From assembly GCA_030611085.1 (NCBI GenBank), contig JAUWQI010000004.1, positions 1,731 to 65,730 of the forward strand: 64,000 nucleotides of DNA, given 5' to 3'. The DNA is from Dehalococcoidia bacterium (GTDB lineage: Bacteria; Chloroflexota; Dehalococcoidia; GIF9; AB-539-J10). Made by a program: the position numbers and the translations under genes. Position 1 is the stretch's first letter. Each line of letters opens with the position of its first letter. Positions 14,279 through 48,078 of the stretch are shown here, one piece after another. The notes under the pieces were generated by a model, which worked only from the letters and a program-made list of their open reading frames with translations, was not told the DNA's origin and ran no database searches.

Positions 14279-14301
14279 ATTTTTAAACAGCCTTTTTCCC
14301 T

Positions 14302-19521: not shown

Positions 19522-19614
19522 AAAAGTTTGCGAGTGTGAAATATCCTTAATTGCCTAAGATTGAACGGAAAATCAAAATTAAACTGCCTTAAAGAAGAAC
19601 GGAGGTGATACGAG

Positions 19615-24903: not shown

Positions 24904-24953
24904 GTAGTTGCCCAATTTATTGGGCGGGTATGCCTGATAAATCAGGCAACTAC
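24904..24953. repeat. Family-A structured repeat
   Basis: gtagttgcccaatttattgggcgggtatgcctgataaatcaggcaactac, just 3' of hpt. Confidence 0.85.
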
Positions 24954-24979
24954 AGAAATTTTCCCGGGAGGGTTAAGAA

Positions 24980-31622: not shown

Positions 31623-31744
31623 CTTCTTGGTGACTTTAGCGGAGTGGACCCACCCGTTCCCATCCCGAACACGGAAGTGAAACTCTCCAGCGCAGACGAT
31701 ACTTAAGGGGCGACTCTCTGGGAAAATATGTCGTTGCCAGGAAG
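31623..31744 (+). rRNA. rrf: 5S ribosomal RNA (stand-alone, no 23S upstream)
   Basis: cccacccgttcccatcccgaacacggaagtgaaac core. The terminal helix cttcttggtgac pairs with gttgccaggaag. Confidence 0.85.
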
Positions 31745-32943: not shown

Positions 32944-32948
32944 AGTTA

Positions 32949-34127
32949 TTACTCACTATCGGTTTCTGACTCGTACACTTTCCTGAGTATTCCTTCAACG
33001 TCATCACGTGCCAAACCGGCTTTTTGCATATCTCTATAAGCCTGCTCACGACTAGAGCCACTTTGCTTCATGGCCTGCGCAGATTCGTAAGGATTTGTCC
33101 CGATGAATGCTTCAATATCCCGCCACCTAACGGGTTTTGGTCCGTATACTTGATCCAGAACCCTCTCAACGTTCTCCTGGTTTAGGCCAGCCCTCTGCAT
33201 TTTCTCATGAGTTTCTTTTCTAGTCAGATTACACTCCTGAAATCTCTTGGTAGCTCCCCAAGGATTGTTGACTATCTGACTTCTATTCGGAAATCCTTTG
33301 CAATACTCCGGCTTGTCTGTTTTCAGCTTGCACAAGTAACATTTCGGATCATCTCCTGTGCAAATCTCACCTTCATCCTCAGCGCAAAAATGCCAAATGT
33401 AGCTATCAACATACTTGCGTGGTTTCCCCAGAGCTTCTGCTATTGTTATCCCTGTTTTCCTGATATCTTCTGGCTTTCTGCTGGCCCTCACCTGAGCTCT
33501 ATTAAGGTTGATTCTATTGAGAAACGCAATTGTGTGGGTATCGGGTTTGAACTCATCGATACCTATATTGTTGAAAAACTCGCAACAGGTCGCTAGTCCC
33601 ACGCTGCGAAGCTTAAACGGGCTATTAGGGTCGGTGAAACATTTTATCAAAGGGGCGTCCGCAGGCCGGACATAGCACTTGCACAACGGGTCATAAGCTG
33701 CTGCAGGCAGATAGCTCTTGATGAGGGTACAGACAGACCCATGCGTAGACATAATCTGCTGGAACACTCTTGCATTATTGCGAATAGCAAGCAGTTCATC
33801 TTCAAGGAATCTTGCCTTCACCTTACTCTTGTACTGAGCGAATAGCTTTCCAATGTCGCTGTCGGTTAAAGCGGCGACGCTATTCACGTTGTAATTAAAT
33901 AAGCTGACTTTCAGAGCAGGCAAGATCTTTTTCACAGATGCCCAATTTGCCTGCCTTGTCAGAATAGCCCTGCATAATCCCTTAAATATATAGTTATCGT
34001 CTCCACGAAAGTCACTAGGGGATGTTCGAATATTTTTCAATACTTTAGGCTTTTCAACTTGCAATGTATCCCTGATCCTGTCTATTAACATCTCACAATC
34101 TGGTTTGGACAGAATATTAATATTCAT
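32949..34127 (-). CDS. Tag-like (3-methyladenine DNA glycosylase I fold) domain protein with Cys-rich and repeat C-terminus
   Basis: By-eye alignment to E. coli Tag: RQANWA vs QAGLSW, AIRNNARV vs IIGNARA, VGLATCCEF vs VGTTICYSF. Two C-terminal repeats MQ(R/K)AGL..(N/D)VE.(V/I)L. RBS aggagg. Confidence 0.45.
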   Translation of the reverse strand: MNINILSKPDCEMLIDRIRDTLQVEKPKVLKNIRTSPSDFRGDDNYIFKGLCRAILTRQANWASVKKILPALKVSLFNYNVNSVAALTDSDIGKLFAQYKSKVKARFLEDELLAIRNNARVFQQIMSTHGSVCTLIKSYLPAAAYDPLCKCYVRPADAPLIKCFTDPNSPFKLRSVGLATCCEFFNNIGIDEFKPDTHTIAFLNRINLNRAQVRASRKPEDIRKTGITIAEALGKPRKYVDSYIWHFCAEDEGEICTGDDPKCYLCKLKTDKPEYCKGFPNRSQIVNNPWGATKRFQECNLTRKETHEKMQRAGLNQENVERVLDQVYGPKPVRWRDIEAFIGTNPYESAQAMKQSGSSREQAYRDMQKAGLARDDVEGILRKVYESETDSE

Positions 34128-34136
34128 TTCTACCTC

Positions 34137-34457
34137 CTATTTTCTGCTGAATCTTCCAGTTCCATCTACCCTCTCCCTCAAAGCCTTCAGATTCACCACG
34201 TCTTCCTTGTTATATTCTAACAGCAAACTCAAGGCATCTTGGTCCCCATAATTCTGATATTTCCACCACAGCCATATTGCCGCCAGTCCGTCAACGCCCT
34301 GTAGCTGCCTGGAAATTCCCAATTGTTGCTCTACTGCCTTGAAGCCACCATAAAGATTATTCCTCCAGCAGTCATACATCAGGTCATGATGGCAAAACTC
34401 AGACTCAAGGTCTATTCCCAGAGAAGAATCAATGAAGGGAAGGTCGAATCGTTCAGT
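34137..34457 (-). pseudogene. 3' fragment of a second RNase H-like exonuclease gene copy
   Basis: Encodes ..FDLPFIDSSLGIDLESEFCHHDLMYDCWRNNLYGGFKAVEQQLG.., a paralog of the C-terminal ~105 aa of 35590-36081. It has no 5' half. Confidence 0.7.
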
Positions 34458-34636
34458 GTGTTTACCCCAGTAAACCTGAGGTCGTCATAGCACTTCTTCA
34501 AGGTCTCGTGAACCCTCGTGCCCAAGAAGCCCTCAACGCCTTCGATATCCCGCTTAATTCTGTCCCGATAGCGAAGCTTGTACTTCAAGGGACACTCCTT
34601 ATACATACTTAGCTGCGAATGAGAATAGATGGGCAT
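34458..34636 (-). pseudogene. 5' fragment of a second Cas4-like PD-(D/E)XK gene copy
   Basis: MPIYSHSQLSMYKECPLKYKLRYRDRIKRDIEGVEGFLGTRVHETLKKCYDD is nearly identical to the start of 31747-32943. It then runs into the exonuclease fragment out of frame. Confidence 0.75.
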
Positions 34637-34733
34637 CTTAACCTTTGTTAGTCTCCCTTCGGATTGTTTGTTGGCACCCTTGTTCTTTACCCTACTCCCT
34701 TTGCGTGTTTATTCACAGGCAGTTCTCACCGAG

Positions 34734-35555
34734 TTAATCCAAATTGTTTCTTGGTACTAGTCGGATATGCCACTTATCCAGCTCTTCTAAGAACCACTCG
34801 TAAAATGCTGTTGGATTTCCTATATAAGGAAGCCTTACACTCCGTTGTATCCAAGCATCATTTACTTCAGTCCGGTTCCCACCTTTATCTTTTACCCGTA
34901 GTCCTCCCCACCTATCCCGAAGCTTCTCTGTGAGCCTGTATTGCTTCCCCTTCCCACGTCGTTTACCAATGGGTATGCATTTTGTCAATCTTCCAGATTT
35001 CTCATCCTCACGCTTTCCAAAGACTATAATATCTGCGTCGTTATATTGCCCTCTTGTATGTGCATTCCTACCACGTTCCCCTTTGTTTACAAGGTCTTTC
35101 GCGGAAATTGGCTTACCATCTACAATGTAAAGACCGATGATAGCATAGACAAGTCGATCTTCCTCTGGTTCACGCTTAATAGGCTTAAGACCTGCATAAA
35201 AAGCCAATATGTCACCATCATTTAATTCACGAATGGGCTTGCCCCTGTGGTGAGTCTTCTTAGAAGAGAAATCACACCCATCAACATCACCATATGATAA
35301 TTCATAGAAGTCGGGGTCAAGGTGCACGTTCTTGCCCTTTAATTTGTCCGGCGGAAGGCGTTTCTCAAATTCCTCACAATCGCAATACTTATTGAACTCA
35401 TCGTAAGTCGTTCTATGCTCTGGACAAACTTGCCTGCCTTCTGGTATGGGAACGTAAACGAAATCATAAACGGGGTCAGTGGTATTGTTATTTACTGGAG
35501 CATTCCAGCCACCAGATGTTAAATCTATACCTACTCTAACCAGTAATGCGTGCAT
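34734..35555 (-). CDS. hypothetical 273-aa protein (possibly Nmad3-like nucleotide-modification-associated domain)
   Basis: MHALLVRVGIDLTSGGWNAP...VHLDPDF...GDILAFYAGL. It reminds me of the Nmad3 family, but this is from memory only. Strong RBS aaggagg. Confidence 0.4.
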   Translation of the reverse strand: MHALLVRVGIDLTSGGWNAPVNNNTTDPVYDFVYVPIPEGRQVCPEHRTTYDEFNKYCDCEEFEKRLPPDKLKGKNVHLDPDFYELSYGDVDGCDFSSKKTHHRGKPIRELNDGDILAFYAGLKPIKREPEEDRLVYAIIGLYIVDGKPISAKDLVNKGERGRNAHTRGQYNDADIIVFGKREDEKSGRLTKCIPIGKRRGKGKQYRLTEKLRDRWGGLRVKDKGGNRTEVNDAWIQRSVRLPYIGNPTAFYEWFLEELDKWHIRLVPRNNLD

Positions 35556-35589
35556 GTTTTCCTCCTTTCTTTAATATTGGGGTGCTGTT

Positions 35590-36081
35590 TCACTCCAGCC
35601 TCTCCCGCAAAACCTTCAGATTTACCACATCCTCTTCATTATACTTCAGCAGTGTAGTCAACGCATTTTGGTCACCTCCATTCTGGTATTTCCACCACAG
35701 CCATACCGCCCCCAATCCACCGACGCCCTGTAGCTGCCTGGGGATTCCTAGCTGTTGTTCTACTGCCTTGAAGCCGCCAAAAAGGTTATGCCCCCAACAG
35801 TCATACATCAGGTCGTGATGGCGAAATTCAGCCTCAAGGTCTATTCCCAGAGAAGAATCAATGAAAGGAAGGTCAAACCGCTTGCCGTTATAGGTATAGA
35901 TTGCATTTACGCCGTTGAGGGATTCGAGAAGATTCTCTCTGGTCACGGCTTCGCCCACTAATTGAATGAGCTTATCATCTTTGCTATTGCACAGATAAAT
36001 GCCGACTACGGTTATATAATCATAAAACCGAGATAAGCCAGTGGTCTCTATATCAAGGTATGCATCAGTCAATTGCTTCAT
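35590..36081 (-). CDS. RNase H-like (DEDD/YprB-type) 3'-5' exonuclease domain protein
   Basis: MKQLTDAYLDIETTGLS...YTYNGKRFDLPFI...HHDLMYD is the exonuclease motif I-III pattern. Confidence 0.7.
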   Translation of the reverse strand: MKQLTDAYLDIETTGLSRFYDYITVVGIYLCNSKDDKLIQLVGEAVTRENLLESLNGVNAIYTYNGKRFDLPFIDSSLGIDLEAEFRHHDLMYDCWGHNLFGGFKAVEQQLGIPRQLQGVGGLGAVWLWWKYQNGGDQNALTTLLKYNEEDVVNLKVLRERLE

Positions 36082-36117
36082 AGCTCGTGCCTTTAGATTG
36101 AAGTGTAGCACATACCA

Positions 36118-36149
36118 GTGACAGCTAGATTGTCACAAACTGCTATTTT
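36118..36149. promoter_or_regulatory. inverted-repeat operator-like motif GTGACA-N7-TGTCAC plus conserved tail
   Basis: gtgacagctagattgtcacaaactgctatttt lies upstream of the exonuclease operon. It is near-identical to 39047-39078. Confidence 0.55.
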
Positions 36150-36207
36150 GTTGGTATATGCCTATCGTTGTTGGAACAGCCTCGCTATATAGATATTGTC
36201 CTCTTTC

Positions 36208-36432
36208 TTACTCCAGTAGCTTGCGGAACTTCTCACGAGTAAGGGAGGCTTCTCTCAATATTTCTCGCAGTGTTCCCACCTTTATCTCTCGATGTCTGGG
36301 AATGGCCACAGTGTGGTTGGTCTTTGGGTGATAGTAAACCATATGGCTTCCTCTTTGCCTATCGAACACGAATCCTGCACGCTTCAGAGCTGCGGTCACC
36401 TGCTGCCAGGTAAGGCTGGGCAGTCGGCTCAC
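36208..36432 (-). CDS. hicA: HicA-family mRNA interferase toxin
   Basis: 74 aa. LKRAGFVFDRQRGSHMVYYHP...IPRHREIKVGTLREILR. Confidence 0.8.
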   Translation of the reverse strand: MSRLPSLTWQQVTAALKRAGFVFDRQRGSHMVYYHPKTNHTVAIPRHREIKVGTLREILREASLTREKFRKLLE

Positions 36433-36632
36433 ACGACTACCTCACGCTCCTTAATCTGTGGTAATGATAACCCTCGCTCCTTGAGACTCTCTAGATAAAC
36501 CTCTATGGCCTCTCTGATATTAGCCATAGACTCCTCAATGGTTTCCCCTTGGGAGATACAGCCAGGTAAGGAAGGCACATACACAGTATAGCCACCTTCT
36601 TGCTGAGGCTCCACGATTACCCTACATTTCAT
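36429..36632 (-). CDS. hicB: HicB-family antitoxin (short form)
   Basis: MKCRVIVEPQQEGGYTVYVPSLPGCISQGETIEESMANIREAIEVYLE. RBS aaaggagg. 4-nt overlap with hicA. Confidence 0.8.
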   Translation of the reverse strand: MKCRVIVEPQQEGGYTVYVPSLPGCISQGETIEESMANIREAIEVYLESLKERGLSLPQIKEREVVV

Positions 36633-36766
36633 TTTGCCTCCTTTGTTATCAAAAGTATCTCTTATGCCCCATGCTTGGGTTAATTCTAGTATGACCCAGG
36701 CTCGAAAGCAATGCTTCACAGTGTTCATATTATCATTTACATGAGCGGCAGCATCTAGCACAAATG

Positions 36767-37198
36767 CTATTTCCTTTTAGAGACTTCCAGCGACTCTGAT
36801 TGGGCGGTAGCTTCTAATTTATGGTCGGAAGAAGAAAAAGTTATCGTTGAGCCAAGCCTTGTCTTGAGAGTCAATGCTGAGGCAAGGTGGATGGCGTCGA
36901 ACCCCCTGAGGCTGTGTCGTTCAGCAAGCGCGCCAGCAAGCTTCGATACTGGCCATTAGACATCTATGGCAAAGTAGGCACCCCAGTGCTGCTGCAGATT
37001 AGTTATCACGGTGTGATACTGCTCATCGGTAAAATCGCCTTGTCGGTGTTTCCTGGCAAAAGCGGCACAAGCTTCGGCGTATGCCACCTGCGAGGTAGCG
37101 ACAACTCTAGCTCCGTCGAACAAAGCCTTCACTTCGTCGGAGCCATCTTCTCTAACATACAGCTTCACTAAAGAGCTCGTATCTAAATAAAGAATCAT
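36767..37198 (-). pseudogene. vapC: VapC (PIN) toxin interrupted by an in-frame TAA
   Basis: MILYLDTSSLVKLYV...YFAIDV-TAA(36956-36958)-WPVSKLAGALAERHSLRGFDAIHLASAL... all reads in one frame. Confidence 0.7.
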
Positions 37199-37461
37199 CG
37201 CCTGTCTTCAATAACAATCTCGGAAACAGGTTTACCACTAGCTGCTATGGGTTCTGGTGCGATTGGTTTGCCACCTTCCCAAATTGCCAGTCCTTCTTTG
37301 ACCATCTCCGTCAATCGGCTGTAATTGTCAGACTCTTCCACAGGAACAATAAGCGCCACATCGCGGCCGCGATTGGTAACTACAACCTGTTCTCCACTTC
37401 TGACAAGAGAGATATAGTATTTGAGATTATTCTTTAGTTTTCTAATGCCTGCTTTGGCCAT
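37195..37461 (-). CDS. Phd/YefM-family antitoxin
   Basis: 88 aa. KLKNNLKYYISLVRSGEQVVVTNRGRDVALIVP. 4-nt overlap with vapC. Confidence 0.75.
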   Translation of the reverse strand: MAKAGIRKLKNNLKYYISLVRSGEQVVVTNRGRDVALIVPVEESDNYSRLTEMVKEGLAIWEGGKPIAPEPIAASGKPVSEIVIEDRR

Positions 37462-37632
37462 ACCATCACCCCTTTTGTGGCAACATTATAAAGATTTTGT
37501 ATCCACAATGTCAATCTTTAATCGCCCAGTGCAGCCACTCCTATCTGGGAAAGGTGGCATTTTACTTGGTAGTAGGCAAGATAACGAGGCTGTGACAGGT
37601 CATGCTGCTTTGAAAGAGTATGTCGCCATATT

Positions 37633-39009
37633 CTACACTCGTTTGCCACGGCTGTTCACGAATTTGACGAAATCATCTAGTTTTTTCATAGTACAGACGA
37701 TTTTATCCACCAACCCTTCTCCATTAGTATTCCGGACTTCATCAGGTTCGAAACGTCTTGTTATGCCGAAGGTAATATCATCATAGTCAGCGCCATCTCC
37801 CTCAATCGCTTCCCCTATTTCACCGATGTACTTGACCAGGTCTTGCCTTTTCTTGAACTCGCTTAATTTTACTTCCCACTTATCTTCTGGGAGAAAAGAT
37901 TTGTGATTCTCCTCACTTTGATAGTAGTACAAATCAATGAAGAACCCCTTGGGCATTTTAAACAATATACGGGATATCTCGTCTTTATCTGTCTTTATCT
38001 TTCTAAGCAGCTTCTTCCTCAGGGCATCATTTGTGACACGAACCCAAACGGAAAGGCCTTCGCTACCTAATTGAATACACCGGTGCGCCTTGACTTCTTT
38101 AACTTTCTTATCAGAAGTTCCTTTATTGTAAACAGGGAGGAAATAAAAAGTCGCCCAATCATACTTGTTTTTACCTTTTCGAATTCCTTCCGGGGGGCCG
38201 CACTTAAGATAACATTTCTTAGTCCTCTCAGATATATCCTCGGATAGAGCCAGCATCTTCCGTTTCAGTTCTTTCCTTATTTCTTCTTTTTCCTTCGCAT
38301 CTAGCTCTTTTTGCTTCTGCTCGTTAAAAAAATCAAAGTACTTGTTATCATTAAAGCCAGTGAATCCAGCCAGCCCTTCCAAATATAGAAAGTCGCAGAA
38401 TTGCGTTATTAAGAATTCGTTTTTTACATTGAGCAATCGCTTGTTTTCAGGTTCATCCTTTAATTCGCTAAAGAAGGTATATAACTGCTTCCATGAAATG
38501 ACAGCAGGCTTGTGCAGATCTCCCAGTATCCCTTTGTGATTCTTAATCTGATTTTTGTCTAGTCCATCATAGCGCTTACTTTCAATAAGAATTGTCCACT
38601 TTTTCCCAAGCAACCACGCATCAGGGATGCTTGCCTCAGTTTCAGGCCTTGTGTTTTCCGCGTAGATTTGTTCAGTAAAACCGTGGGGGACTATACCCAA
38701 TATTCGCTTAGCTGTCTCTCGGCCAAGATACTTGTCACCGGGATTCCCTTGCTGAAGTAGGAACTTATCCACTTTTGGGGGCACAAGCTTGACTCCTATT
38801 TTCCCGCTCAGCCAGCTAATAAACCGTTTACATATCTCACCATTACCATCGGTAAGTTCTAAGACATTAATAAGAGCCTTGGTTACATTGTTCTCAAGTG
38901 CTTTTGTTTCTTCAGTATCACCGTTCTCCGTATCACCGCCTTTTGTCGGTCCTCTATAATATTCAAATATGTTGTGACCCTTTATGTTGTGACCCTTTTC
39001 ATAATCCAT
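37633..39009 (-). CDS. 458-aa protein with N-terminal PD-(D/E)xK nuclease-like motif, otherwise unknown
   Basis: ..EASIPDAWLLGKKWTILIESKRYD.. (D..ExK). RBS aaaggaggg. It lies downstream of the WYL regulator on the same strand. Confidence 0.55.
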   Translation of the reverse strand: MDYEKGHNIKGHNIFEYYRGPTKGGDTENGDTEETKALENNVTKALINVLELTDGNGEICKRFISWLSGKIGVKLVPPKVDKFLLQQGNPGDKYLGRETAKRILGIVPHGFTEQIYAENTRPETEASIPDAWLLGKKWTILIESKRYDGLDKNQIKNHKGILGDLHKPAVISWKQLYTFFSELKDEPENKRLLNVKNEFLITQFCDFLYLEGLAGFTGFNDNKYFDFFNEQKQKELDAKEKEEIRKELKRKMLALSEDISERTKKCYLKCGPPEGIRKGKNKYDWATFYFLPVYNKGTSDKKVKEVKAHRCIQLGSEGLSVWVRVTNDALRKKLLRKIKTDKDEISRILFKMPKGFFIDLYYYQSEENHKSFLPEDKWEVKLSEFKKRQDLVKYIGEIGEAIEGDGADYDDITFGITRRFEPDEVRNTNGEGLVDKIVCTMKKLDDFVKFVNSRGKRV

Positions 39010-39046
39010 TCTATTCCCTCCTTTGTTTTTAGAATTACATACCTTT

Positions 39047-39078
39047 GTGACATCTAGATTGTCACAAATTGCTATTTT
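39047..39078. promoter_or_regulatory. inverted-repeat operator-like motif GTGACA-N7-TGTCAC plus conserved tail
   Basis: gtgacatctagattgtcacaaattgctatttt lies between the WYL gene stop and the 458-aa gene start. Confidence 0.55.
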
Positions 39079-40059
39079 TTCTTATAGACATCCAGCATAG
39101 CTTTAGCCGTCTCGATAATATCCTGGCGCAGTTCCTCTGGCTCCAGCACCTCCACCTTCTCTCCCCAGCTCAATATCCAGAAACAGAGTTCGTCTGTAAC
39201 GGTCACCCGCAGTGTCATTATTACCGAGCCATCCTTTTGCCTCTCCACCACCTGTGAGGAATGCCATACTGTCTCCTCCATTATCCTGGCTATTTCAGGG
39301 TCAAACTTCAGCTTAACCGTCTTGGCCTCACCATAAACAGTGATGCCCCAGGAAGAACCCAAAAATTCATTAGCATCAAAACCATGTGGCATAACATAAT
39401 GCTCAAGGGTTGGTTCTATGCTTTCTATGCGCTCTATCTTGAAGGTGCGTATTTCATGGGCACGATGGCAATAGGCAATAACATAGCTTGAGTGCCCTGC
39501 CGCCGCTGGCTCAATAAAATATGGCTCTATTGTGCGTTCAGTTGTCTTCTCTGCCTCCAGTGCCCTATAGATTATTTTAACTCGTTGCTGGGATATCCAC
39601 GCCTCAGCTAGAGTCGCCAGGGTGCGCAAATACCTGTCGTCCTTTGGTTGTTTCTGCATCCACTCCATGGTCTTTTGAATTTGCTCTCTCAACGGAGGTG
39701 AGACTATGGAATTCAACTTCATGAAGGTAGAGGCTACATTGGGGTCATAGCGATGGGTGTAGCTGAGCATCAGCCGGGCAGCGAGAAAAACATTCAAGGC
39801 TTCAGGCAGGGTAAAGTGGATGGGGGGGGAGAAGATAACCTTCTGTGATACCGCGCTTAGTGCTCTCTTCCCAGATGGGCACGCCCAGCTCAGTTTCCAG
39901 GGCAGCCAGGTCACGATATGTAGTTCTTTTGCTGACTTCACACCGGCTAGAGATATCTTCTATCTTCAAACCCCTGGGATTCTGGTAGAGCAGGTGCTCT
40001 ACTTTCAGCAAGCGCGCCGTTCGGTCTGTTTTCCGTCTTTCAGCTTCACTCAATTTCAC
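39072..40059 (-). pseudogene. HTH-WYL-WCX transcriptional regulator split by a frameshift at a C8 tract
   Basis: The HTH ORF (39802-40059) and the WYL ORF (39072-39941) overlap. Removing one C from the C8 run (39822-39829) gives a continuous ..EGYLLPPIHFTLPEALNVFLAARL.. (~328 aa). Confidence 0.75.
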
Positions 40060-40147
40060 TGTCTCTCATTAGCCCAAAGTTGCCTGATTTTCATTATAAC
40101 ACCTGCCATAAGAATATTCGTAAAAAGCTAAAACTCCAGCCAAATTT

Positions 40148-40166
40148 GTGACAGACCGTCGTCACA
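40148..40166. promoter_or_regulatory. related imperfect inverted repeat GTGACA-N7-GTCACA in WYL/AAA+ divergent promoter
   Basis: tttgtgacagaccgtcgtcacatg. It shares the tttGTGACA half-site with 39047, but the spacing differs by 1 nt. Confidence 0.3.
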
Positions 40167-40225
40167 TGCCCATGCTATTCTGATTCTTAGCTGCAAATTA
40201 AAGAGATGGGGAGGGTGAATAAAAG

Positions 40226-41602
40226 ATGACCGCGGAAGAACGTTTTCTGGAGGCTATCGACGAGGAAGATAACGAGGAGCTTGAAGCGCCTGCTCCGTAT
40301 GACCGGTTTGCCAGGAGGCATGAAAAGCTCCAATACAAGAACAAGTCTGCTAGCGAGAATTTCTTGGGCAAAGGCAGCCGAGCAAATGCAGTAGCCATAC
40401 TGCCCAGATACTACGGTGAACTGCTGACCTGGGCACTCGATCGCTACATTGAGAAAGAGGGGTGGAAGGTTATTCGAATCCTCGGCTACCGTGGCCGTGA
40501 ACCCATATATATAGATGTGAGCACGGACTGCGATAAGTGTGAGGACCTTTTGATGAATGGCCAATTATTATTAGAGAAGGGTGATAGCCATTTCATAGTT
40601 ACCGTGGACATAAACCTGCAGTGGAGAAATTCAGTCCAGGTAGAAGGTTCTGCCAAAAGGAGAAAGGAAATAGAGAAATTCGCCGACGGCGTCAAGGCTA
40701 TCGCCAAAGAGCAGAACTTCTACCGGGGTAAGAAAATTGAGTTCGGAGGGCGTATTCACTTTCTGAATATCAAAGACAGGTCGTGGGACAGCATTATACT
40801 GGCTCCTGCCATAAAGCGAGAAATCGAGGCTAATACCATTGATTTCTTGAACAGGAGGAAACACTGGGCAGAATATGGGATACCCCAGAAAAGAGGCGTT
40901 CTGCTCGCAGGTGAGCCGGGGACAGGGAAAACAGTAATCTGCAAGGCGCTGATGGCAAATGCCAATGGAGTAACCTGCATCACGACCAATGCCTATGGGT
41001 TGAGCGCTGATGAGTACATCACCGAGCTTTATGAGATGGCTCAAGACCTCAGTCCATGTATCGTTTTCATCGAGGATATAGACCTAATAGGGCTAAACCG
41101 GGAGGAGTATCTCTACCAGCATGGCCCTGCGTTGCTCTCGTTGCTCAACGTACTCGATGGGGTTGAAGAGAAGCAGGAAATCGTAACCGTGGCTACCACC
41201 AATAACCTGCAGACGCTGGATAGGGCCATAAGCCAGCGCCCATCGCGCTTTGACCGCGTCGTAAAGCTCTCTCTCCCACTACTGGAAGAACGGAAAGAAC
41301 TAATCAGCTCATTGTGTCAGAAAATACCCGTAGATGAACCCACCCAGGATTATATTGCCCGTAGGTCAGAACACTGCACCCCAGCTCAGCTACAGGAGGT
41401 TATCTACAGCCTGGTCATAGAGCACTCTGATGAACTATCCGCTGCTCAGTCGCCAAATCTTGAATTTGGCAAAGATGATATTGACCGAGTCATCTCAAGG
41501 ATAAATGGCAGGAATGGGCAGCACATAGGTTTCAATATCTCTGGTAATCACAATGGTGACAAGATGGCCTGTGTGGAAGCTTTGGAGCAAAGCAAGTGTT
41601 GA
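40226..41602 (+). CDS. AAA+ ATPase (classic AAA clade) with ~220-aa uncharacterised N-terminal domain
   Basis: GVLLAGEPGTGKTV (Walker A), CIVFIEDIDLI (Walker B) and ATTNNLQTLDRAISQRPSRFDR (SRH). Confidence 0.8.
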   Translation: MTAEERFLEAIDEEDNEELEAPAPYDRFARRHEKLQYKNKSASENFLGKGSRANAVAILPRYYGELLTWALDRYIEKEGWKVIRILGYRGREPIYIDVSTDCDKCEDLLMNGQLLLEKGDSHFIVTVDINLQWRNSVQVEGSAKRRKEIEKFADGVKAIAKEQNFYRGKKIEFGGRIHFLNIKDRSWDSIILAPAIKREIEANTIDFLNRRKHWAEYGIPQKRGVLLAGEPGTGKTVICKALMANANGVTCITTNAYGLSADEYITELYEMAQDLSPCIVFIEDIDLIGLNREEYLYQHGPALLSLLNVLDGVEEKQEIVTVATTNNLQTLDRAISQRPSRFDRVVKLSLPLLEERKELISSLCQKIPVDEPTQDYIARRSEHCTPAQLQEVIYSLVIEHSDELSAAQSPNLEFGKDDIDRVISRINGRNGQHIGFNISGNHNGDKMACVEALEQSKC

Positions 41603-41781
41603 GCAGACTGCTAAGAGTGTTTTTGATTCCACCATTGTTAATTGCTGTGACTGCCTTGGTCATCGTTGGGCTCAAAGATTTTAACTTACTGAGCGTAATA
41701 ATTCCCAAACTCATAGTGGCAATTGTTATTATTGGGATTCCGATACTTATCGTGAAGAGAGTGTTTTTCCCTAAATACTAA
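41596..41781 (+). CDS. small 2-TM membrane protein (61 aa)
   Basis: The GTG start overlaps the AAA+ stop (gtgttga). The sequence is strongly hydrophobic. Confidence 0.4.
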   Translation: MLSRLLRVFLIPPLLIAVTALVIVGLKDFNLLSVIIPKLIVAIVIIGIPILIVKRVFFPKY

Positions 41782-41802
41782 GAAGAAAGGAGAGTGAGAA
41801 GG

Positions 41803-41949
41803 ATGAAACATCCGGTAAGGTGTCCAAAATGCGGAGGGACCGGCCAGGTACCTAGAAAAGGCTTGCCGCCTATGCTGAAAGGGGCAATCGGGATTCGTCA
41901 GCACGACGAATGTCCTGTTTGCAACGGCGTAGGTTACGTCGAAGACTAG
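41803..41949 (+). CDS. 48-aa mini-protein with two DnaJ-type CxxCxGxG zinc-finger motifs
   Basis: Own translation: MKHPVRCPKCGGTGQVPRKGLPPMLKGAIGIRQHDECPVCNGVGYVED. RBS aaaggagag lies upstream. Confidence 0.5.
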   Translation: MKHPVRCPKCGGTGQVPRKGLPPMLKGAIGIRQHDECPVCNGVGYVED

Positions 41950-42102
41950 AGAATGTGAACCGAAACCCTGACATTGGATACTCTAGGTTAGAGCAGCCGA
42001 CGTGGCTCGGCAGACACACTGGGAAGTGGCACCATGTGAAAAATATTGCGTGGTGCCACCCCTATGAACTTGCGGGTTCTATATATGAAGGGAAGAGGGA
42101 TA

Positions 42103-42210
42103 GAATTTTATATCCCCAAGGTGGGAAAAGATTTCTATATGCCTAGGGTGGGTAAAGACTTCTATGTGCCTAAGGTAAGCAAGGATTTCTATGCTCCTAA
42201 AATTAGAAAG
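42103..42210 (+). repeat. four tandem 27-bp repeats (encode [D/E]FYxP[K/R][V/I]xK in one frame)
   Basis: gaattttatatccccaaggtgggaaaa / gatttctatatgcctagggtgggtaaa / gacttctatgtgcctaaggtaagcaag / gatttctatgctcctaaaattagaaag. Confidence 0.8.
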
Positions 42211-42264
42211 GGGGGACTCTTCTAATTTTAGGATGAAAATATTTTGGCTTCATCATCTTCCCCT

Positions 42265-42297
42265 GTCATTGCGAGGAGCATAGCGACGAAGCAAACC
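42265..42297. repeat. Family-B single unit
   Basis: gtcattgcgaggagcatagcgacgaagcaaaccc. Confidence 0.7.
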
Positions 42298-42328
42298 CTA
42301 ACATAGGGTTGCCATATCTTCATATCTC

Positions 42329-42349
42329 GGTCGGGGACAAGCCCCGACC
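42329..42349. repeat. GC-rich hairpin ggtcggggacaagccccgacc
   Basis: Perfect 8-bp stem with a 5-nt loop. Confidence 0.6.
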
Positions 42350-42364
42350 CTACGACATATAACC

Positions 42365-42388
42365 GTAGTGGCGGGGTTCATCCCCGCC
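42365..42388. repeat. hairpin repeat gtagtGGCGGGGttcatCCCCGCC, copy 1
   Basis: It matches 42796-42819 at 23 of 24 positions. Confidence 0.75.
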
Positions 42389-42731
42389 TTATACTCGCCA
42401 AGAAGAATTGCCTGATATGTTACCCATCTATCTGAACTAAATCACTGGCAGCACAATGATAAGCATTTTCATTCCGCAGGAGCTCCGGGGTTTAATCTAA
42501 CCACATTGATAATCAGTAAGTCGCCCTTGTAATAGTGGGGTAAATCATCAAAATATTTGGTATCGGTAATTCAGGAGAAGGCATATAGCGGGGTTCGGAA
42601 GATAAAGCCATAGGTTTCTACGGGATGATTATGCCTGATTGGTGTCTCAGTTGATATCACCGCTGTGGTCTAAATGCTTATAGTAAATTATAACAACAAA
42701 ATCTGTTAGAATATTCGCAGATTGCTTGATT

Positions 42732-42790
42732 GTCACCCTGAACGGAAGTGAAGAGGAGATTCTTCGGTCGATTCGCTCCCTCAGAATGAC
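42732..42790. repeat. Family-B palindromic element
   Basis: gtcaccctgaacggaagtgaagaggagattcttcggtcgattcgctccctcagaatgac. Confidence 0.8.
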
Positions 42791-42795
42791 AAATG

Positions 42796-42819
42796 GTAGT
42801 GGCGGGGTTTATCCCCGCC
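42796..42819. repeat. hairpin repeat gtagtGGCGGGGtttatCCCCGCC, copy 2
   Basis: See 42365-42388. Confidence 0.75.
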
Positions 42820-42847
42820 TGATCCCTACAAGCAATATTGAAGGCAC

Positions 42848-43351
42848 ATGGCGGAACTGGAAATAGAAATTGCTAAATTGATAGGGGAATGCCATGTCAA
42901 AACAGGCAAGCTATTGACCATCGGTACTATTGAGTCGGCTACTGGCGGCAGGATAGCTGATAAAATAACCAATGTTTCTGGCAGTTCCGATTATTTTAAG
43001 GGCTCTGTGGTAGCATATAGTAACGAGGCAAAAACTAATGTCGTTGGGGTAAAAAAGGGGACTATAGAAAATTATGGAGCTGTTAGCTCACAAACAGCTA
43101 TGGAAATGGCTCAAGGTGGCAGAGAACTCCTGGATGTGGATATATGCATTTCCGATACTGGCATTGCGGGTCCTTCAGGTGGCAGTCCTGAAAAGCCTGT
43201 AGGACTGTTTTATATTGGCTTAGCTAGTGAGAACGAGTGTCTGAGTCAAAAACATGTCTTTTCTGGTAATCGGGAGGAAAACAAGCGGGATGCTGCTGGG
43301 ACAGCGCTAGTTATGTTGAAGCAACATTTGCTACACTGCATTAGCAAGTGA
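42848..43351 (+). CDS. pncC: CinA C-terminal domain / nicotinamide-nucleotide amidohydrolase PncC
   Basis: TIESATGGRIADKITNVSGSSDYFKGSVVAYSNEAKTNVVGV and TGIAGPSGG. Confidence 0.8.
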   Translation: MAELEIEIAKLIGECHVKTGKLLTIGTIESATGGRIADKITNVSGSSDYFKGSVVAYSNEAKTNVVGVKKGTIENYGAVSSQTAMEMAQGGRELLDVDICISDTGIAGPSGGSPEKPVGLFYIGLASENECLSQKHVFSGNREENKRDAAGTALVMLKQHLLHCISK

Positions 43352-43365
43352 GGGTGTTTAAAAAT

Positions 43366-43416
43366 GTAGTTGCCCAATTTATTGGGCAATAAGAGCCTGA
43401 TAAATCAGGCAACTAC
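43366..43416. repeat. Family-A structured repeat
   Basis: gtagttgcccaatttattgggcaataagagcctgataaatcaggcaactac, just 3' of pncC. Confidence 0.85.
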
Positions 43417-43452
43417 AAATTAATCCTCTCTCATCAAGGGAGAGGAACTTTA

Positions 43453-45000
43453 GTGGAAACTTATGAGGGGGATACTATAAAAATGGCAACTTTTGATTTA
43501 AACGAAATAAAGTCGCAAGCAAAGAGCAATTTTACCGAGGCTTGGAGAGCAACGGCAAAGCTTATCCCAACAGGCACTAAAATCAGTCTGGAGGGAAAAG
43601 GCAAACCCCATCTTGTGCGGGAATTGGTGCAAAAATCTCGTGAAATATTGCTAAATCTAGGTTTCGATGAGGTGGAAAATCCTACAATCTTACCCGACAG
43701 CGATGTTGTTAAGCAGTATGGTCCTGAAGCGCGAGTTATTCTTGACAGGGTTTTTTATCTAGCGGAGTTACCCCGTCCTGAAATAGGGCTGAGCGCGAAA
43801 AGAATAGCTCAGGTAAAGAAGATAGCGGGGGAAATCGACATTGAAAAACTACAGTCTGTTTTAAGAAGCTACAAAAAAGGGGAAATTGAGGCAGATAACC
43901 TTATTGAGGAGCTCATGGCTAGGCTGAGCATCACTGATTACCAGGCTACAGAGCTTTTGAACCAGGCTTTCCCCGAACTTTACAAGCTTCGCCCCTTGCC
44001 TTCTGATAAGACTCTAAGAAGCCACATGACAGCTACCTGGTTCCACACTTTAGCAGCATTGCAGGATAAATCTGGCTTTCCCCTCGCCTTATTCTCCGTG
44101 GGACCTCGGTATCGCAATGAGCAGAGAGAGGATGCCCAACATCTACGAGTCCATCACTCAGCCTCAATCGTTATAATGGATCCTGAGGTGTCATTGGACG
44201 CAGGAAGGGAAATAACAGAAGGAATCCTAAAGCAGTATGGCTTTTCCGATATTAAATTTGAGACGAAGACAGCGACATCTAAATATTATGCTCCAGGGCA
44301 AGAGCAAGAGATATTCATTAAGCATAAAGGGAATTGGCTCGAAGTTGCCGATATTGGAATGTATTCTCCGATAGCCTTAGCAAACTTTGATATTAAGTAT
44401 CCGGTATTTAACGCTGGTTTTGGGGTTGAACGACTAGCTATGCTTCTCTATGAGCTAGATGATGTTAGAAAAGTAGCATATCCCCAGTTTTCCATAGCTG
44501 ACTATTCTGATGAAGAAATAGCCAAATCTATTACCTGCATAGTAAGTCCTAAAACCACGAAAGGAAAGAAAGTAGCCAGGGCAATCGAGGAAACTGCTCG
44601 AAAGTATAAAGACGAGATTGCGCCCTGTGAATTTCTAGCCTGGGAAGATAACTTTATTCAAGTGAAAGTTACAGAGAAGGAAGCAGGCAAGAGGCTAATC
44701 GGGCCCGCAGGGTTTAACGAGATTTGTGTCGCTAATGGCGCTATTTATAGTGATATTGCGCCTTCAGGGGCATATACCGGGATAAACTACATGCGTGCCA
44801 TTGCCGTAGGAGCAGCAGCTTCAATCGAAAGCAGCAAAGATAACCTAAGCTATCAGGTGAAAATGATAAAGCATCTCTCGGACCTCAATTTACAAATTCC
44901 GGAGGCTATTCGGGAGCATATAGAAGGGCAGCAAAAAAAGATTGGGGTTAGTGGTGCTGTATTTGTGACTATAGAGGCAGAACCAGTAAAAGGGTGCTAA
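43453..45000 (+). CDS. sepS: O-phosphoserine--tRNA(Cys) ligase (SepRS)
   Basis: Long colinear similarity to methanogen SepRS: QYGPEARVILDRVFYLAELPRPEIGLS, TLRSHMTATWF, HHSASIVIMD, SKYYAPGQEQE, GMYSPIALANF, GFGVERLAM, VAYPQF. The start is GTG 43453 or ATG 43483. Confidence 0.85.
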   Translation: METYEGDTIKMATFDLNEIKSQAKSNFTEAWRATAKLIPTGTKISLEGKGKPHLVRELVQKSREILLNLGFDEVENPTILPDSDVVKQYGPEARVILDRVFYLAELPRPEIGLSAKRIAQVKKIAGEIDIEKLQSVLRSYKKGEIEADNLIEELMARLSITDYQATELLNQAFPELYKLRPLPSDKTLRSHMTATWFHTLAALQDKSGFPLALFSVGPRYRNEQREDAQHLRVHHSASIVIMDPEVSLDAGREITEGILKQYGFSDIKFETKTATSKYYAPGQEQEIFIKHKGNWLEVADIGMYSPIALANFDIKYPVFNAGFGVERLAMLLYELDDVRKVAYPQFSIADYSDEEIAKSITCIVSPKTTKGKKVARAIEETARKYKDEIAPCEFLAWEDNFIQVKVTEKEAGKRLIGPAGFNEICVANGAIYSDIAPSGAYTGINYMRAIAVGAAASIESSKDNLSYQVKMIKHLSDLNLQIPEAIREHIEGQQKKIGVSGAVFVTIEAEPVKGC

Positions 45001-45009
45001 CTCTCCTTT

Positions 45010-45037
45010 GTCACCCTAAGCGAAGCGAAGGGTCTAG
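45010..45037. repeat. Family-B single unit
   Basis: gtcaccctaagcgaagcgaagggtctag, immediately after the sepS stop. Confidence 0.75.
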
Positions 45038-45162
45038 AAACAGAGGAGCAATATTAAATAATTCAACTTTAGTTGTGCCAAAGGCACAATCAAAATTGAA
45101 GCTGAAACCAAAATTGAAGAGCCGCGTTTTAAGCAGGGGGCGAACCATCGCAAGGGGGAAAC

Positions 45163-46305
45163 ATGGCGAAACAAGCAGAAAGTAAATCATTACAAAAGCT
45201 CGCTAACTTGCGCAGGCAACATAAGAGCTTTATAAATATTATGCCCCTACAGACAGGAGGCATGCTTACCGAGGCTGCCCAAAAAGCTTTAGTGGAATTT
45301 GGAGATGGTTATTCCGTATGCGATTTCTGCCTTGGCAGCTTGTGCAATATAACAAATCCTCCTGTTAGGGAGTTTGCGCATGAGCTTTTACCGGAGTTCT
45401 TGGGCTGCGAAGTTGCTACTTTAACCTATGGGGCAAGGGATGGCATATTTATGATAATGCACTCTCTGGCAAAGCCAGGAGGTTCAATTATTGTTGATGG
45501 TAACAGACATTACACCACGGTTGTTGCTGCTGAAAGAGTGGGATTGAATGTAATCGGAGTGCCTTCTTCGGGATATCCAGAGTTCAAGGTTGATGTTAAC
45601 GACTATGTATCACTTATAAAAAAACACAATCCTAAATTGATTCTATTAACCTATCCCGATGGCAATTATGGCAATATTTCCGATGCCAGAAGACTAGGGG
45701 AAATTGCCCAGGAATATGACATTCCCTATATTGTTAATGGAGCATATGCCGTGGGCCGGATGCCGGTAAATATGGAGGGGTTGGGAGCGGATTTCATTGT
45801 TGGTAGTGGGCACAAAAGCATGGCCTCTGCTGGACCTTGCGGGGTGTTGGGAATGAAAAGGAAATGGGAAGAAATCGTGCTGAGGAAATCCGAGGCATAC
45901 GGCAATAAAGAGCTTGAATCGCTGGGTTGCACCTTGCGGGGAACTCCCCTGGTAACACTTATGGCTTCCTTTCCTTATGTGAAAGAAAGAGTTAATCACT
46001 GGGATGAGCAAGTATCAAAGGCACAATGGTTTTCCCGCGAGCTGGAAAAATTGAGCTTTAAGCAATTAGGAGAAACACCACACCAACATGACCTGCTACA
46101 CTTTGAGACTCCGGCGCTCTATGATATTTCCAAGCATGTTCGGGAGCGGGGATACTTTCTCTACAAGGAGCTGAAAGAAAGAGGCATTTGGGGACCGCAG
46201 CCAGGCCTGACGAAAGCTTTTAAACTTTCCACCTTTGCCGCTACCAAAGAACAGCTACAATTTGTCATAGATTCCTTTAAAGCCATCCTGAATAAATATG
46301 GATAG
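45163..46305 (+). CDS. pscS: Sep-tRNA:Cys-tRNA synthase (SepCysS), PLP-dependent
   Basis: 380 aa. IVGSGHKSMASAGPCGVLG (PLP-Lys plus the Cys-containing loop), fold-type I aminotransferase layout. Adjacent to sepS. Confidence 0.8.
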   Translation: MAKQAESKSLQKLANLRRQHKSFINIMPLQTGGMLTEAAQKALVEFGDGYSVCDFCLGSLCNITNPPVREFAHELLPEFLGCEVATLTYGARDGIFMIMHSLAKPGGSIIVDGNRHYTTVVAAERVGLNVIGVPSSGYPEFKVDVNDYVSLIKKHNPKLILLTYPDGNYGNISDARRLGEIAQEYDIPYIVNGAYAVGRMPVNMEGLGADFIVGSGHKSMASAGPCGVLGMKRKWEEIVLRKSEAYGNKELESLGCTLRGTPLVTLMASFPYVKERVNHWDEQVSKAQWFSRELEKLSFKQLGETPHQHDLLHFETPALYDISKHVRERGYFLYKELKERGIWGPQPGLTKAFKLSTFAATKEQLQFVIDSFKAILNKYG

Positions 46306-46373: not shown

Positions 46374-47000
46374 CTAGAATAGTCGCGTAGAAACCTCATT
46401 GTGTCTTTGTGCATGGGCCATCTTTAACTGCTGGAAATGTGACTGAAATGAAGCGGAGGCGATATCATCCGTGCACATAAGTATAGCATCTTCACCATCA
46501 TTGGAGTAATACCTGAGGCGTCTCCCCACCGTTTGAAACCCGTACTTTTCATAAAGCGCCTGAGCCATTTTATTGGAAGCACGTACTTCTAAAGTGACTG
46601 CGGTAGCATCTAACTGTGTAGCTAGTCCAATGATTGAGATGAGCAATCCCTCGCCTATACCAATTCGGCGGTAATTATTTCTTACAGCAATAGTGGTGAT
46701 ATGCGCATCTTTTAACATTAACCAGAAACCAGCAAAACCAATGATATATTCTGTTTTAGGTTTCCCCTTATTGGGGGAGTGATTGGGACTAAAAAGCCGT
46801 TTGAACAAGGGTAGTTGTTGCACACCTTGTCGGTTTAGTTCTGTAGAAGCTACTATGTAGCGAGCTATTGGATTGTTGAAGTCTTGTTTATACGAGGGAT
46901 GAGACCGGAATACCCACTCACCAGGGAAAGCCTCATGGTCTATTTCAGCTACCTGAGGGATATCCTTATTTTTTATAGGGCGAATGATATAATCCGCCAT
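46374..47000 (-). CDS. GNAT N-acetyltransferase, RimI-like
   Basis: IRPIKNKDIPQVAEIDHEAF...AVRNNYRRIGIGEGLL...LEVRASNKMAQALYEKYGF. Confidence 0.6.
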   Translation of the reverse strand: MADYIIRPIKNKDIPQVAEIDHEAFPGEWVFRSHPSYKQDFNNPIARYIVASTELNRQGVQQLPLFKRLFSPNHSPNKGKPKTEYIIGFAGFWLMLKDAHITTIAVRNNYRRIGIGEGLLISIIGLATQLDATAVTLEVRASNKMAQALYEKYGFQTVGRRLRYYSNDGEDAILMCTDDIASASFQSHFQQLKMAHAQRHNEVSTRLF

Positions 47001-47136
47001 TGTTTATTTTACCACCTTCACCTTAGTTCCTTTGCTTCACTAGAGAGAGATAGATTCATTACTTGGAATTTTAGCATAGCAGTTGATGGTAAATCATGCT
47101 ATCTTAAAGTTACCTTGTTATAATGAAGTTTTAAGC

Positions 47137-48078
47137 ATGAAAAATATACTAGACCTCCATGTTCAACTAGCTCCCCGCCACTATAAAGGATTAATTCTGG
47201 CTAATCCAGTGATGGCGGCTGCTGGCACGGTTGGTTACGGCGTGGAGTATAGTAAAATTGTTGACATACAGAAATTAGGCGCTATTGTTTGTAAAGGGAT
47301 TACCCTTATGCCACGGAGTGGTAATCCTCAACCGCGGCTGATGGAAACTGCCAGTGGCTTGCTTAATTCTGTTGGTCTGGAAAATATCGGTATTGCTGCC
47401 CTGCTCGAGGATAAAGCGCCTATATGGGCAAATTGGCAGGTTCCAGTCATAGTTAATGTTGCTGGAGAAACAATAGATGAATATATTGCTGTGGCGAGTA
47501 AATTAGAAGGCATACCAGGGATAAGTGGTATTGAGCTAAATATTAGTTGTCCCAATATCTCAACTAATAGTATGGAGTTTGGCGCAAATCCGAGACTCGC
47601 GGCTAAATTGACTTCAGCGGTTAAAGCGGTAACCAGCTTGCCAATCATAGTTAAGCTGAGTCCTAATGTAACTGATATTAAAGAAATCGCCCTGGCAGTG
47701 GAGGAGGCTGGAGCCGATGCTTTAACTTTGATTAATACGGTGAAAGGAATGGCAATCGATATAGCTAAAGGGAAGCCTTGCTTGGGGAATACTACTGGTG
47801 GGCTTTCTGGTCCTGCTATCAAACCTATAGCACTCTACATGGTGTATGAGGTAGCGAAGGTTGCCCATATTCCATTGATAGGTTGTGGTGGTATTGCTTG
47901 TGCCACAGATGCGCTGGAGTTTATTATGGCTGGAGCTAGTGCAATACAAGTTGGCACAGCTAATCTAACTAACCCTCATAGTAGCCTTGTTATATTGGAA
48001 GGGATAGCAGATTTCATGAAGAATAAAGGAATTACGAATTTAACTGAGTTAGTTGGCGTGGCTCAGGATAACTCCTGA
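47137..48078 (+). CDS. pyrD: dihydroorotate dehydrogenase catalytic subunit (class 1)
   Basis: NPVMAAAGT, LNISCPN (catalytic Cys), GGLSGPAIKP and GCGGI. Start at MKNILDLHV. Confidence 0.85.
   Translation: MKNILDLHVQLAPRHYKGLILANPVMAAAGTVGYGVEYSKIVDIQKLGAIVCKGITLMPRSGNPQPRLMETASGLLNSVGLENIGIAALLEDKAPIWANWQVPVIVNVAGETIDEYIAVASKLEGIPGISGIELNISCPNISTNSMEFGANPRLAAKLTSAVKAVTSLPIIVKLSPNVTDIKEIALAVEEAGADALTLINTVKGMAIDIAKGKPCLGNTTGGLSGPAIKPIALYMVYEVAKVAHIPLIGCGGIACATDALEFIMAGASAIQVGTANLTNPHSSLVILEGIADFMKNKGITNLTELVGVAQDNS

Follow-up and report, generated by a model that had tools for sequence, protein, structure and literature searches.

Does a Dehalococcoidia bacterium make cysteinyl-tRNA by the tRNA-dependent route that is typical of archaea and, if so, are the genes for it recent arrivals or old residents? 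The question is raised by two adjacent genes, sepS and sepCysS, both on the plus strand of a 64-kb stretch of contig JAUWQI010000004.1 (assembly GCA_030611085.1), which was analysed over its full length and is called the window here. A first-pass annotation had assigned the open reading frames (ORFs) at 43453-45000 and 45163-46305 to O-phosphoseryl-tRNA(Cys) synthetase (SepRS) and to SepCysS (the Sep-tRNA:Cys-tRNA synthase that depends on pyridoxal phosphate, PLP), respectively. Both assignments held, and we are highly confident that the locus is a two-gene, bacterial (Chloroflexi-type) tRNA-dependent cysteine pathway in a Dehalococcoidia genome. For comparison, related loci were collected in one scan of GTDB species-representative genomes (one genome per species), from which 80 loci were kept, and the conservation of residues was counted over 74 SepRS and 68 SepCysS sequences of related loci.

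Identity and conserved residues of SepRS and SepCysS

In searches with NCBIfam profiles, the first ORF scored 455.7 bits against the SepRS equivalog TIGR00470 (cutoff 380.65) and the second 517.5 bits against the SepCysS equivalog TIGR02539 (cutoff 365.25). Solved structures gave the same answer over nearly the full length of both proteins. SepRS residues 14-510 (numbered throughout from the ORF that begins at GTG 43453, with equivalent positions mapped off structure alignments) align with residues 3-532 of the Archaeoglobus fulgidus enzyme (PDB 2du3, E 2.4e-112), and the Methanocaldococcus and Methanococcus SepRS structures align likewise. For SepCysS, residues 17-379 align with residues 3-370 of A. 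fulgidus SepCysS1 (PDB 2e7j, E 5.3e-140). The motifs quoted in the first-pass annotation are all present in the translations, namely KQYGPEARVILDRVFYLAELPRPEIGLS, LRSHMTATWF, HHSAS, SKYYAPGQEQE, YSPIAL, GFGVERLAM and YPQF in SepRS and the PLP-Lys loop GSGHKSMASAGPCGVLG in SepCysS.

The residues expected to make the two enzymes work are also in place. The phosphoserine pocket of SepRS is kept in the structure alignment as H191-M192-T193, S236, S238 and N320-A-G322; from the 2007 structures, we take A. fulgidus T188, S231, S233 and N325 to be the residues with this role. Over the 74 aligned sequences, the catalytic and signature positions of SepRS vary little or not at all, the N, G, H, T and S238 of the pocket being invariant. 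The Asn-X-Gly motif is described as fully conserved among SepRS enzymes, whereas SepRS-like proteins with other specificities have it altered (PMC8762117). The anticodon-reading glutamates E408 and E410 correspond to A. fulgidus Glu418 and Glu420, the pair of positions at which the 2du5 entry differs. In SepCysS, the PLP lysine K218 is equivalent to A. fulgidus K209, and C53, C56 and C256 are equivalent to C39, C42 and C247, three conserved cysteines that are implicated in persulfide and Fe-S chemistry; the lysine and all three cysteines are invariant in 68 of 68 aligned sequences.

Both proteins carry the marks of the bacterial type. In bacterial SepRS, the motif that recognises 1-methylguanosine at position 37 of the tRNA (m1G37) is absent, a hydrophilic residue, in most cases Asp, takes the place of Ile444, and the helix that follows is gone, while bacterial SepCysS is without the 144-147 loop and has no 8-aa insertion at 234/235 (PMC5424206). 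The window proteins show every one of these signatures in the alignments. In SepRS, eight residues are missing opposite A. fulgidus 444-451, with D434 coming next, and this loop is the shortest among 30 full-length cluster representatives and A. fulgidus SepRS. SepCysS is without four residues of the A. fulgidus 140-147 loop, and its alignment is ungapped across 230-237, leaving no 8-aa insertion at 234/235. It is also without an N-terminal extension, aligning to the Methanocaldococcus jannaschii SepCysS from residue 40 onward only. As judged from the alignments, the window SepRS is a Chloroflexi-type enzyme without the m1G37-recognition motif.

Only the start of sepS departs from the coordinates given at first. 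At its longest, the ORF begins at GTG 43453 and encodes 515 aa, ending at 45000 on the plus strand as annotated, but the likely start is ATG 43483, giving a protein of 505 aa that begins MATFD, because the representative of its 50%-identity cluster aligns residue 1 to residue 1 with the ATG form and many relatives begin with MATFD. The SepCysS ORF, at 380 aa, keeps the coordinates first given.

Inheritance of the pair and the readings weighed

The closest relatives of the window genes are found in the same bacterial class. In a collection of 5.8 billion proteins, the closest SepRS proteins are 80-90% identical, and those with organism names come from Dehalococcoidia metagenome-assembled genomes (MAGs); the best SepRS match in any collection is 89-90% identical, and no identical copy of the window SepCysS is on record in the collections searched. 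Seventy-five of the 80 kept loci are from Dehalococcoidia, Dehalococcoidales or Chloroflexota MAGs, with SepRS orthologues of 63-89% identity, including RBG_13_51_36 (L026, 79%) and CG2_30_46_19 (L045, MNYD01000137.1, 76%). The remaining five are archaeal (uncultured archaeon, Hadarchaeum and Promethearchaeota; 42-47%). On this count, the SepRS–SepCysS operon is near-universal in the clade. The first-pass annotation had described the pathway as only sporadically reported in uncultured bacteria, Chloroflexi included; its occurrence in Chloroflexi is borne out (PMC5424206), while the 75 loci and their conserved synteny do not agree with a sporadic distribution.

The usual gene order in the relatives is CinA–SepRS–SepCysS–RimI (reverse)–PyrD, which is also the order in the window. 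SepCysS directly follows SepRS on the same strand in 68 of the 75 related bacterial loci, CinA lies 5' of SepRS in 63, RimI is convergent downstream in 58 and PyrD is found downstream in 30, the shortfall being mostly due to contigs that end early. The identity of the flanking genes to those of the window tracks SepRS identity (Spearman 0.69-0.81), and the pairwise distances of SepRS and SepCysS, compared as matrices over 65 taxa, are correlated with a Mantel r of 0.94, a value that none of 999 permutations reached. In a neighbour-joining tree of SepRS sequences, as read from most of its branches, the window sequence is sister to that of one related locus (L001) inside a single Dehalococcoidia clade, with the archaeal sequences outside. 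A search of 1.84 billion representatives of 50%-identity clusters (E ≤ 1e-30) found 83 SepRS clusters; the Dehalococcoidia SepRS form one of them, and the next full-length cluster is only 47% identical. The composition of the genes is that of their surroundings, with a GC content of 0.439 for sepS and 0.448 for sepCysS against a window mean of 0.451 ± 0.021, ordinary GC at third codon positions, and codon-usage distances that are below the window median for both.

Because synteny, flanking-gene divergence, co-divergence, the tree and host-like composition agree, the pair can be regarded as an old resident and not as a recent transfer, a contaminant or part of a chimera. On these sequence comparisons, sepS–sepCysS is an old, vertically inherited operon of the Dehalococcoidia clade with a fixed place (cinA–sepS–sepCysS–rimI–pyrD). 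Horizontal transfer from archaea, which the first-pass annotation had proposed to examine by phylogeny, is not borne out as a recent event, the Dehalococcoidia SepRS being one clade with the archaea outside it. An ancient archaeal transfer into the ancestor of the clade is plausible and has also been proposed in the literature.

The rest of the window is bacterial, as had been claimed. It encodes a prepilin peptidase with a bacterial A24 N-terminal domain, a GAF-GGDEF-HD-GYP protein, a LuxR-type response regulator, a dimeric-type GlyRS, Dtd, Fur, a his-gene cluster and signal peptidase I, and its tRNA-Gln is of bacterial type (U1-A72, G73 and an encoded CCA end). Bacterial Elp3 is known from Dehalococcoides, and the Elp3 homologue at 6515-8188, a radical SAM/GNAT tRNA U34-modification enzyme (TIGR01211, 585.5 bits), would fit the taxonomic placement.

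SepRS belongs to the class II synthetases and is a relative of PheRS-alpha. In the pathway proposed here, it would charge tRNA-Cys (GCA anticodon) with O-phosphoserine, reading GCA through the retained glutamates, with m1G37 not needed; an enzyme without the m1G37-reading motif fits a bacterial tRNA-Cys with A37. The PLP lysine of SepCysS would then eliminate the phosphate to give dehydroalanyl-tRNA, the most likely intermediate, which would be attacked by the sulfur of a cysteine persulfide to yield Cys-tRNA-Cys, a mechanism as summarised in PMC5424206. No SepCysE/SepCysSn adaptor would be needed, as in Archaeoglobus. This two-step route, as first suggested for the locus, is supported by the gene identities, the catalytic residues and the tested orthologues, and by analogy with the latter the window pair would be expected to be active. 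We infer co-transcription across the 162-nt spacer between the two genes, as well as the physiological role of the pair.

Several points weigh against such a pathway operating here. By itself, the window reveals neither expression nor enzyme activity of sepS and sepCysS. It holds no tRNA-Cys in its 64 kb that would show the substrate and its position 37. The conversion of Sep-tRNA to Cys-tRNA by a Chloroflexi SepCysS was incomplete in the published in vitro assay, at about 30-60%; activity in E. coli was also reported for the enzyme (PMC5424206). At 162 nt, the spacer is much longer than is usual in the relatives, where the median gap between the SepRS stop and the SepCysS start is near 0 nt; it could split the pair into two transcripts, and a weak promoter-like site (9/12 matches) lies in it at 45035-45062. 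Over the spacer region as a whole, promoter-like sites are no more frequent than in shuffled sequence, and simple promoter and terminator scans around the operon gave nothing decisive.

The two ORFs could instead be a PheRS-alpha-like paralogue beside a generic class V aminotransferase or cysteine desulfurase, and Pfam does return only broad families for them (tRNA-synt_2d for the first, SepSecS and Aminotran_5 for the second). However, the best PheS model gives the SepRS ORF 87.7 bits, under its cutoff of 237.45, the PylS C-terminal model gives it 31.9 bits (cutoff 178.15), and the best cysteine-desulfurase model, SufS, gives the SepCysS ORF 42.6 bits (cutoff 475.1), whereas both ORFs exceed the SepRS and SepCysS cutoffs; neither falls among PheRS-alpha paralogues or among generic aminotransferases, which the first-pass annotation had named as the outcome contrary to its assignment. 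Solved PheRS-alpha chains cover the catalytic core only (SepRS residues ~185-345, E 4e-12 or weaker), whereas the SepRS structures match at full length (E 1e-112). Profile scores, structure alignments and residues together refute the paralogue explanation, to which we give practically no credence. That the pair is archaeal DNA out of place, brought in by a chimeric or contaminated contig or by a very recent transfer, is suggested by how typical the pathway is of archaea and by the archaeal origin of the nearest SepRS outside the Chloroflexota in our scan. This is countered by the CinA, RimI and PyrD genes that flank the pair in dozens of independently assembled MAGs, by flanking genes that have diverged in step with SepRS, by host-like GC content and codon usage, and by the position of the Dehalococcoidia in one clade and one cluster, well apart from archaea. 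The contig is neither archaeal nor chimeric by these tests, its bacterial genes agreeing with a Dehalococcoidia host, and a recent transfer or chimera is refuted as well, being extremely improbable. It has also to be considered that the window SepRS might be a degenerate SepRS-like enzyme whose specificity for amino acid or tRNA is altered, as in Thermoplasmata, and which does not serve cysteine coding, since such proteins exist, some of them putatively bacterial (PMC8762117), and its anticodon-binding domain has lost a motif. Against this, Asn-X-Gly is intact, the anticodon-reading glutamates are kept, and the paired SepCysS has all its catalytic residues; moreover, an orthologue of the same clade charged tRNA-Cys with phosphoserine, and the absence of that motif is, as published, normal for bacterial SepRS (PMC5424206). 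We therefore regard a degenerate enzyme as very improbable, and the Chloroflexi-type cysteine pathway is preferred.

How far the cell depends on this pathway is a separate matter. The pair could be the sole source of Cys-tRNA and of cysteine in a cell that lacks both CysRS and cysteine synthase; alternatively, it could work alongside CysRS, mainly as a route of cysteine synthesis. A sole route would be in keeping with the strong selection suggested by a fixed housekeeping locus in 75 species-representative genomes and by invariant catalytic residues, and profile searches found no cysS, nor any pylS or other pyl gene, among the proteins of the 64 kb. But a window of this size is uninformative on the rest of the genome, CysRS occurs as well in many organisms with SepRS (PMC8762117), and the literature searched reports no CysRS loss in the lineage. 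We regard full dependence on the pair as unlikely. If it were true, it would mean obligately tRNA-dependent cysteine synthesis in widespread sediment and groundwater bacteria.

As first noted, the window contains no tRNA-Cys, cysS or SepCysE-like gene. For tRNA-Cys, the search was extended to 55 related loci, and none was found within 10 kb of the operon in the bacterial ones; the only one of the 55 loci with a tRNA-Cys is archaeal (L076), in which it lies just upstream of SepRS. For the adaptor, no SepCysE or SepCysSn gene was found within the 64 kb.

The locus adds one species to a bacterial clade that makes Cys-tRNA in the methanogen way, and it has little import beyond correct annotation. 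The survey sharpens the published picture by showing the operon as near-universal in the clade, with a fixed place between cinA and rimI/pyrD and two genes that co-diverged. Because SepRS and SepCysS co-diverged, long vertical inheritance is favoured over sporadic acquisition. The clade is a good place to ask whether some bacteria depend fully on tRNA-dependent cysteine and what serves as the sulfur donor of SepCysS.

Spacer, dispersed repeats and neighbouring genes

The features of the locus are listed in Table 1.

Table 1. Genes and intergenic elements in and around the sepS–sepCysS locus (positions in the window)
Feature	Position	Strand	Size, basis and remarks
cinA/pncC-like nicotinamide-nucleotide amidohydrolase domain protein	42848..43351	+	Pfam CinA, E 3.8e-49; conserved upstream neighbour
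Hairpin-forming dispersed intergenic repeat copy, between cinA and sepS	43366..43420	+	~60 nt; five copies in the window, folding
Second hairpin	43424-43444		Perfect 9 bp; after the repeat copy at 43366-43420
sepS, O-phosphoseryl-tRNA(Cys) synthetase (SepRS)	43483..45000	+	505 aa from the likely start; TIGR00470, PDB 2du3, starts of relatives
Intergenic spacer enlarged by inserted repeat DNA	45001..45162	+	162 nt; repeat copies, comparison with relatives
sepCysS (pscS), PLP-dependent Sep-tRNA:Cys-tRNA synthase, clade I/bacterial type	45163..46305	+	380 aa; TIGR02539, PDB 2e7j
rimI-like GNAT acetyltransferase	46374..47000	-	TIGR01575, 105.5 bits (cutoff 86.4); conserved convergent downstream neighbour
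pyrD, dihydroorotate dehydrogenase	47083..48078	+	NF005574, 419 bits; conserved downstream neighbour

The spacer between sepS and sepCysS had been described as repeat-bearing, and repeats were indeed found in it. Positions 45010-45034 are one arm of a dispersed palindromic repeat, a second copy of which lies at 12220-12244(-) where none is expected by chance, and a fuller copy of this type of repeat is found around 42730-42793; a 14-nt direct repeat occupies 45088-45119. By comparison, the last ~45 nt, including an AAGGGGG ribosome-binding site, resemble the closest relatives. Spacers longer than 100 nt in relatives hold palindromic repeats of the GTCACCCTGAGCGAAGCGAAGGGTC…GCTCAGAATGAC kind in some loci and inserted genes in others.

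The only ORF in the spacer, of 63 aa (44994-45185), has no Pfam match, and Rfam gives nothing at the gathering threshold for the spacer, the RNA folding of which is only mildly better than that of shuffled sequence (z = -2.4). With no family match, weak folding and no conservation in relatives, a functional gene or RNA in the spacer was rejected, the ribosome-binding site excepted. SepCysE or SepCysSn in the spacer was likewise rejected, as the 63-aa ORF is without a family and derives from repeat DNA that most relatives lack, and SepCysS is without the N-terminal extension.

In one relative, a lake-sediment Chloroflexi MAG (L022), 5.3 kb is inserted between SepRS and SepCysS (11674-16517), encoding a CDF cation-efflux transporter, a YeeE/YedE-type sulfur transporter, a class V aminotransferase resembling cysteine desulfurase/selenocysteine lyase and a putative Se/S carrier protein. 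The insert may bear on the sulfur donor of SepCysS. The sulfur genes were seen in this locus only, the CDF gene alone being inserted in two others (L014 and L024), and sulfur-trafficking genes were therefore rejected as a regular part of the operon.

Between cinA and sepS, the window carries one of five copies of a ~60-nt repeat, GTAGTTGCCCAATTTATTGGGCGA..GAGCCTGATAAATCAGGCAACTAC, where none would be expected in 64 kb. The other copies lie at 5641-5700, 14220-14278(-), 19471-19530 and 24904-24965, and the five align at 80% mean column identity; no Rfam family was found for the repeat. The region 43352-43452 folds at -43.4 kcal/mol (z = -7.5). Four of the five copies directly follow the stop codon of a co-oriented gene, and one copy departs from the others by C-to-T changes, with G-U pairing preserved on this strand. 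One relative (L002) has a copy at the equivalent cinA–sepS position. The hairpin repeat upstream of SepRS was considered as a cysteine-specific leader and rejected, as the four further copies adjoin unrelated genes.

Between cinA and SepRS, 30 of the 75 related loci encode a small DUF4342 protein (e.g. L016, 7305-9560), and 7-8 of these loci also have an inserted formate/nitrite-family channel and a cNMP-binding protein; the window has none of the three. On the other side of cinA, a stretch of ~700 nt (42100-42850) has no ORF of ≥60 aa and is crowded with small palindromic repeats of the GTCACCCTGA...TCAGAATGAC and GTCATTGCGAGG...GCGACGAAGCAA kinds, together with GGCGGGGTT(C/T)ATCCCCGCC hairpins and a 27-nt tandem repeat of 3.3 copies at 42105-42192. 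Pieces of these repeats recur between other genes of the window and in the spacers that separate SepRS from SepCysS in relatives.

Further from the operon, the ~10-kb block at 31747-41950 has the appearance of a variable defence or mobile island. It contains a PD-(D/E)XK (Cas4-like) nuclease, a 392-aa protein with a weak methyladenine-glycosylase match, gene fragments of RNase_H_2 and PD-(D/E)XK type, Nmad3, RNase_H_2, HicB and Phd/YefM antitoxins, an unassigned 458-aa protein, a WYL-WCX regulator, a 51-aa CxxCxGxG zinc-ribbon ORF and an IetA-like AAA ATPase (padloc E 1.4e-21). Just before this block, between a thiolase gene and a nuclease gene, is a lone 5S rRNA gene at 31626-31742 (Rfam 94.6 bits); no 23S or 16S gene was found in the window. 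The protein at 2086-3444, which adjoins the prepilin peptidase gene, joins a TackOD1 domain (Thaumarchaeal output domain 1, E 1.5e-36) to an Mrr-type restriction endonuclease domain, and padloc gave no match for it.

Two further genes are of unusual length. The dimeric-type GlyRS at 26805-28544 (NF003211, 671.6 bits) has 579 aa against a model of 454 positions, pointing to an insertion of ~100 aa. The hisG ORF at 56969-58510 (513 aa) apparently consists of two HisG-like halves (~1-220 and ~290-508), each opening with a (V/I)KLALP(K/D)G motif, and the linker between them (…FERNEESRGAQDKLREGEAKQSP…) looks like a translated intergenic repeat. It may have arisen by in-frame fusion of a tandem duplication, or from two genes through the loss of a stop codon.

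Comparison with known systems

SepRS and SepCysS were reported in "Candidatus Parcubacteria" and Chloroflexi by Mukai et al. (2017, mBio) from IMG and NCBI data, with a SepRS–SepCysS operon that the bacteria have in common (PMC5424206), and a survey in 2022 widened the set of bacterial SepRS clades (PMC8762117). In the earlier study, a Chloroflexi SepRS charged bacterial tRNA-Cys in vitro, and Chloroflexi SepCysS was found to keep the three cysteines (PMC5424206). The window locus has the same gene order as the Chloroflexi operon, SepRS and then SepCysS; its SepRS has the same loss of the m1G37 helix with Asp for Ile444, and its SepCysS the same loop deletion, the same lack of the 8-aa insertion and the same three cysteines. 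RBG_13_51_36 and CG2_30_46_19, both cited in that study, share its flanking genes. It differs in being from another species and in having a spacer that repeat DNA has widened to 162 nt. One published Chloroflexi contig carried pylSn, whereas the window is without pylS.

Among the archaeal systems, that of A. fulgidus, with SepRS (2du3) and SepCysS1 (2e7j) as a two-protein system without SepCysE, agrees with the window pair in domain order, in the catalytic and anticodon-reading residues, and in the PLP lysine and the cysteines, and neither its SepCysS1 nor that of the window has the SepCysE-binding N-terminal extension. However, the window SepRS is only 42.5% identical to it and is without residues 444-451, the m1G37-reading region, and the window SepCysS is 55.6% identical over aligned pairs and is without the four residues of the 140-147 loop. 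Unlike in A. fulgidus, the genes are in a bacterial genome and adjacent to each other. The transsulfursome of M. jannaschii (PDB 5x6b/5x6c and 3wkr) is built from homologous enzymes (SepRS E 5e-105, SepCysS E 4e-114) and carries out the same two catalytic steps that are predicted here, but the window has no SepCysE/SepCysSn gene and its SepCysS no N-terminal extension. The system is already known, and the locus is a further orthologue of the published operon, a new example only.

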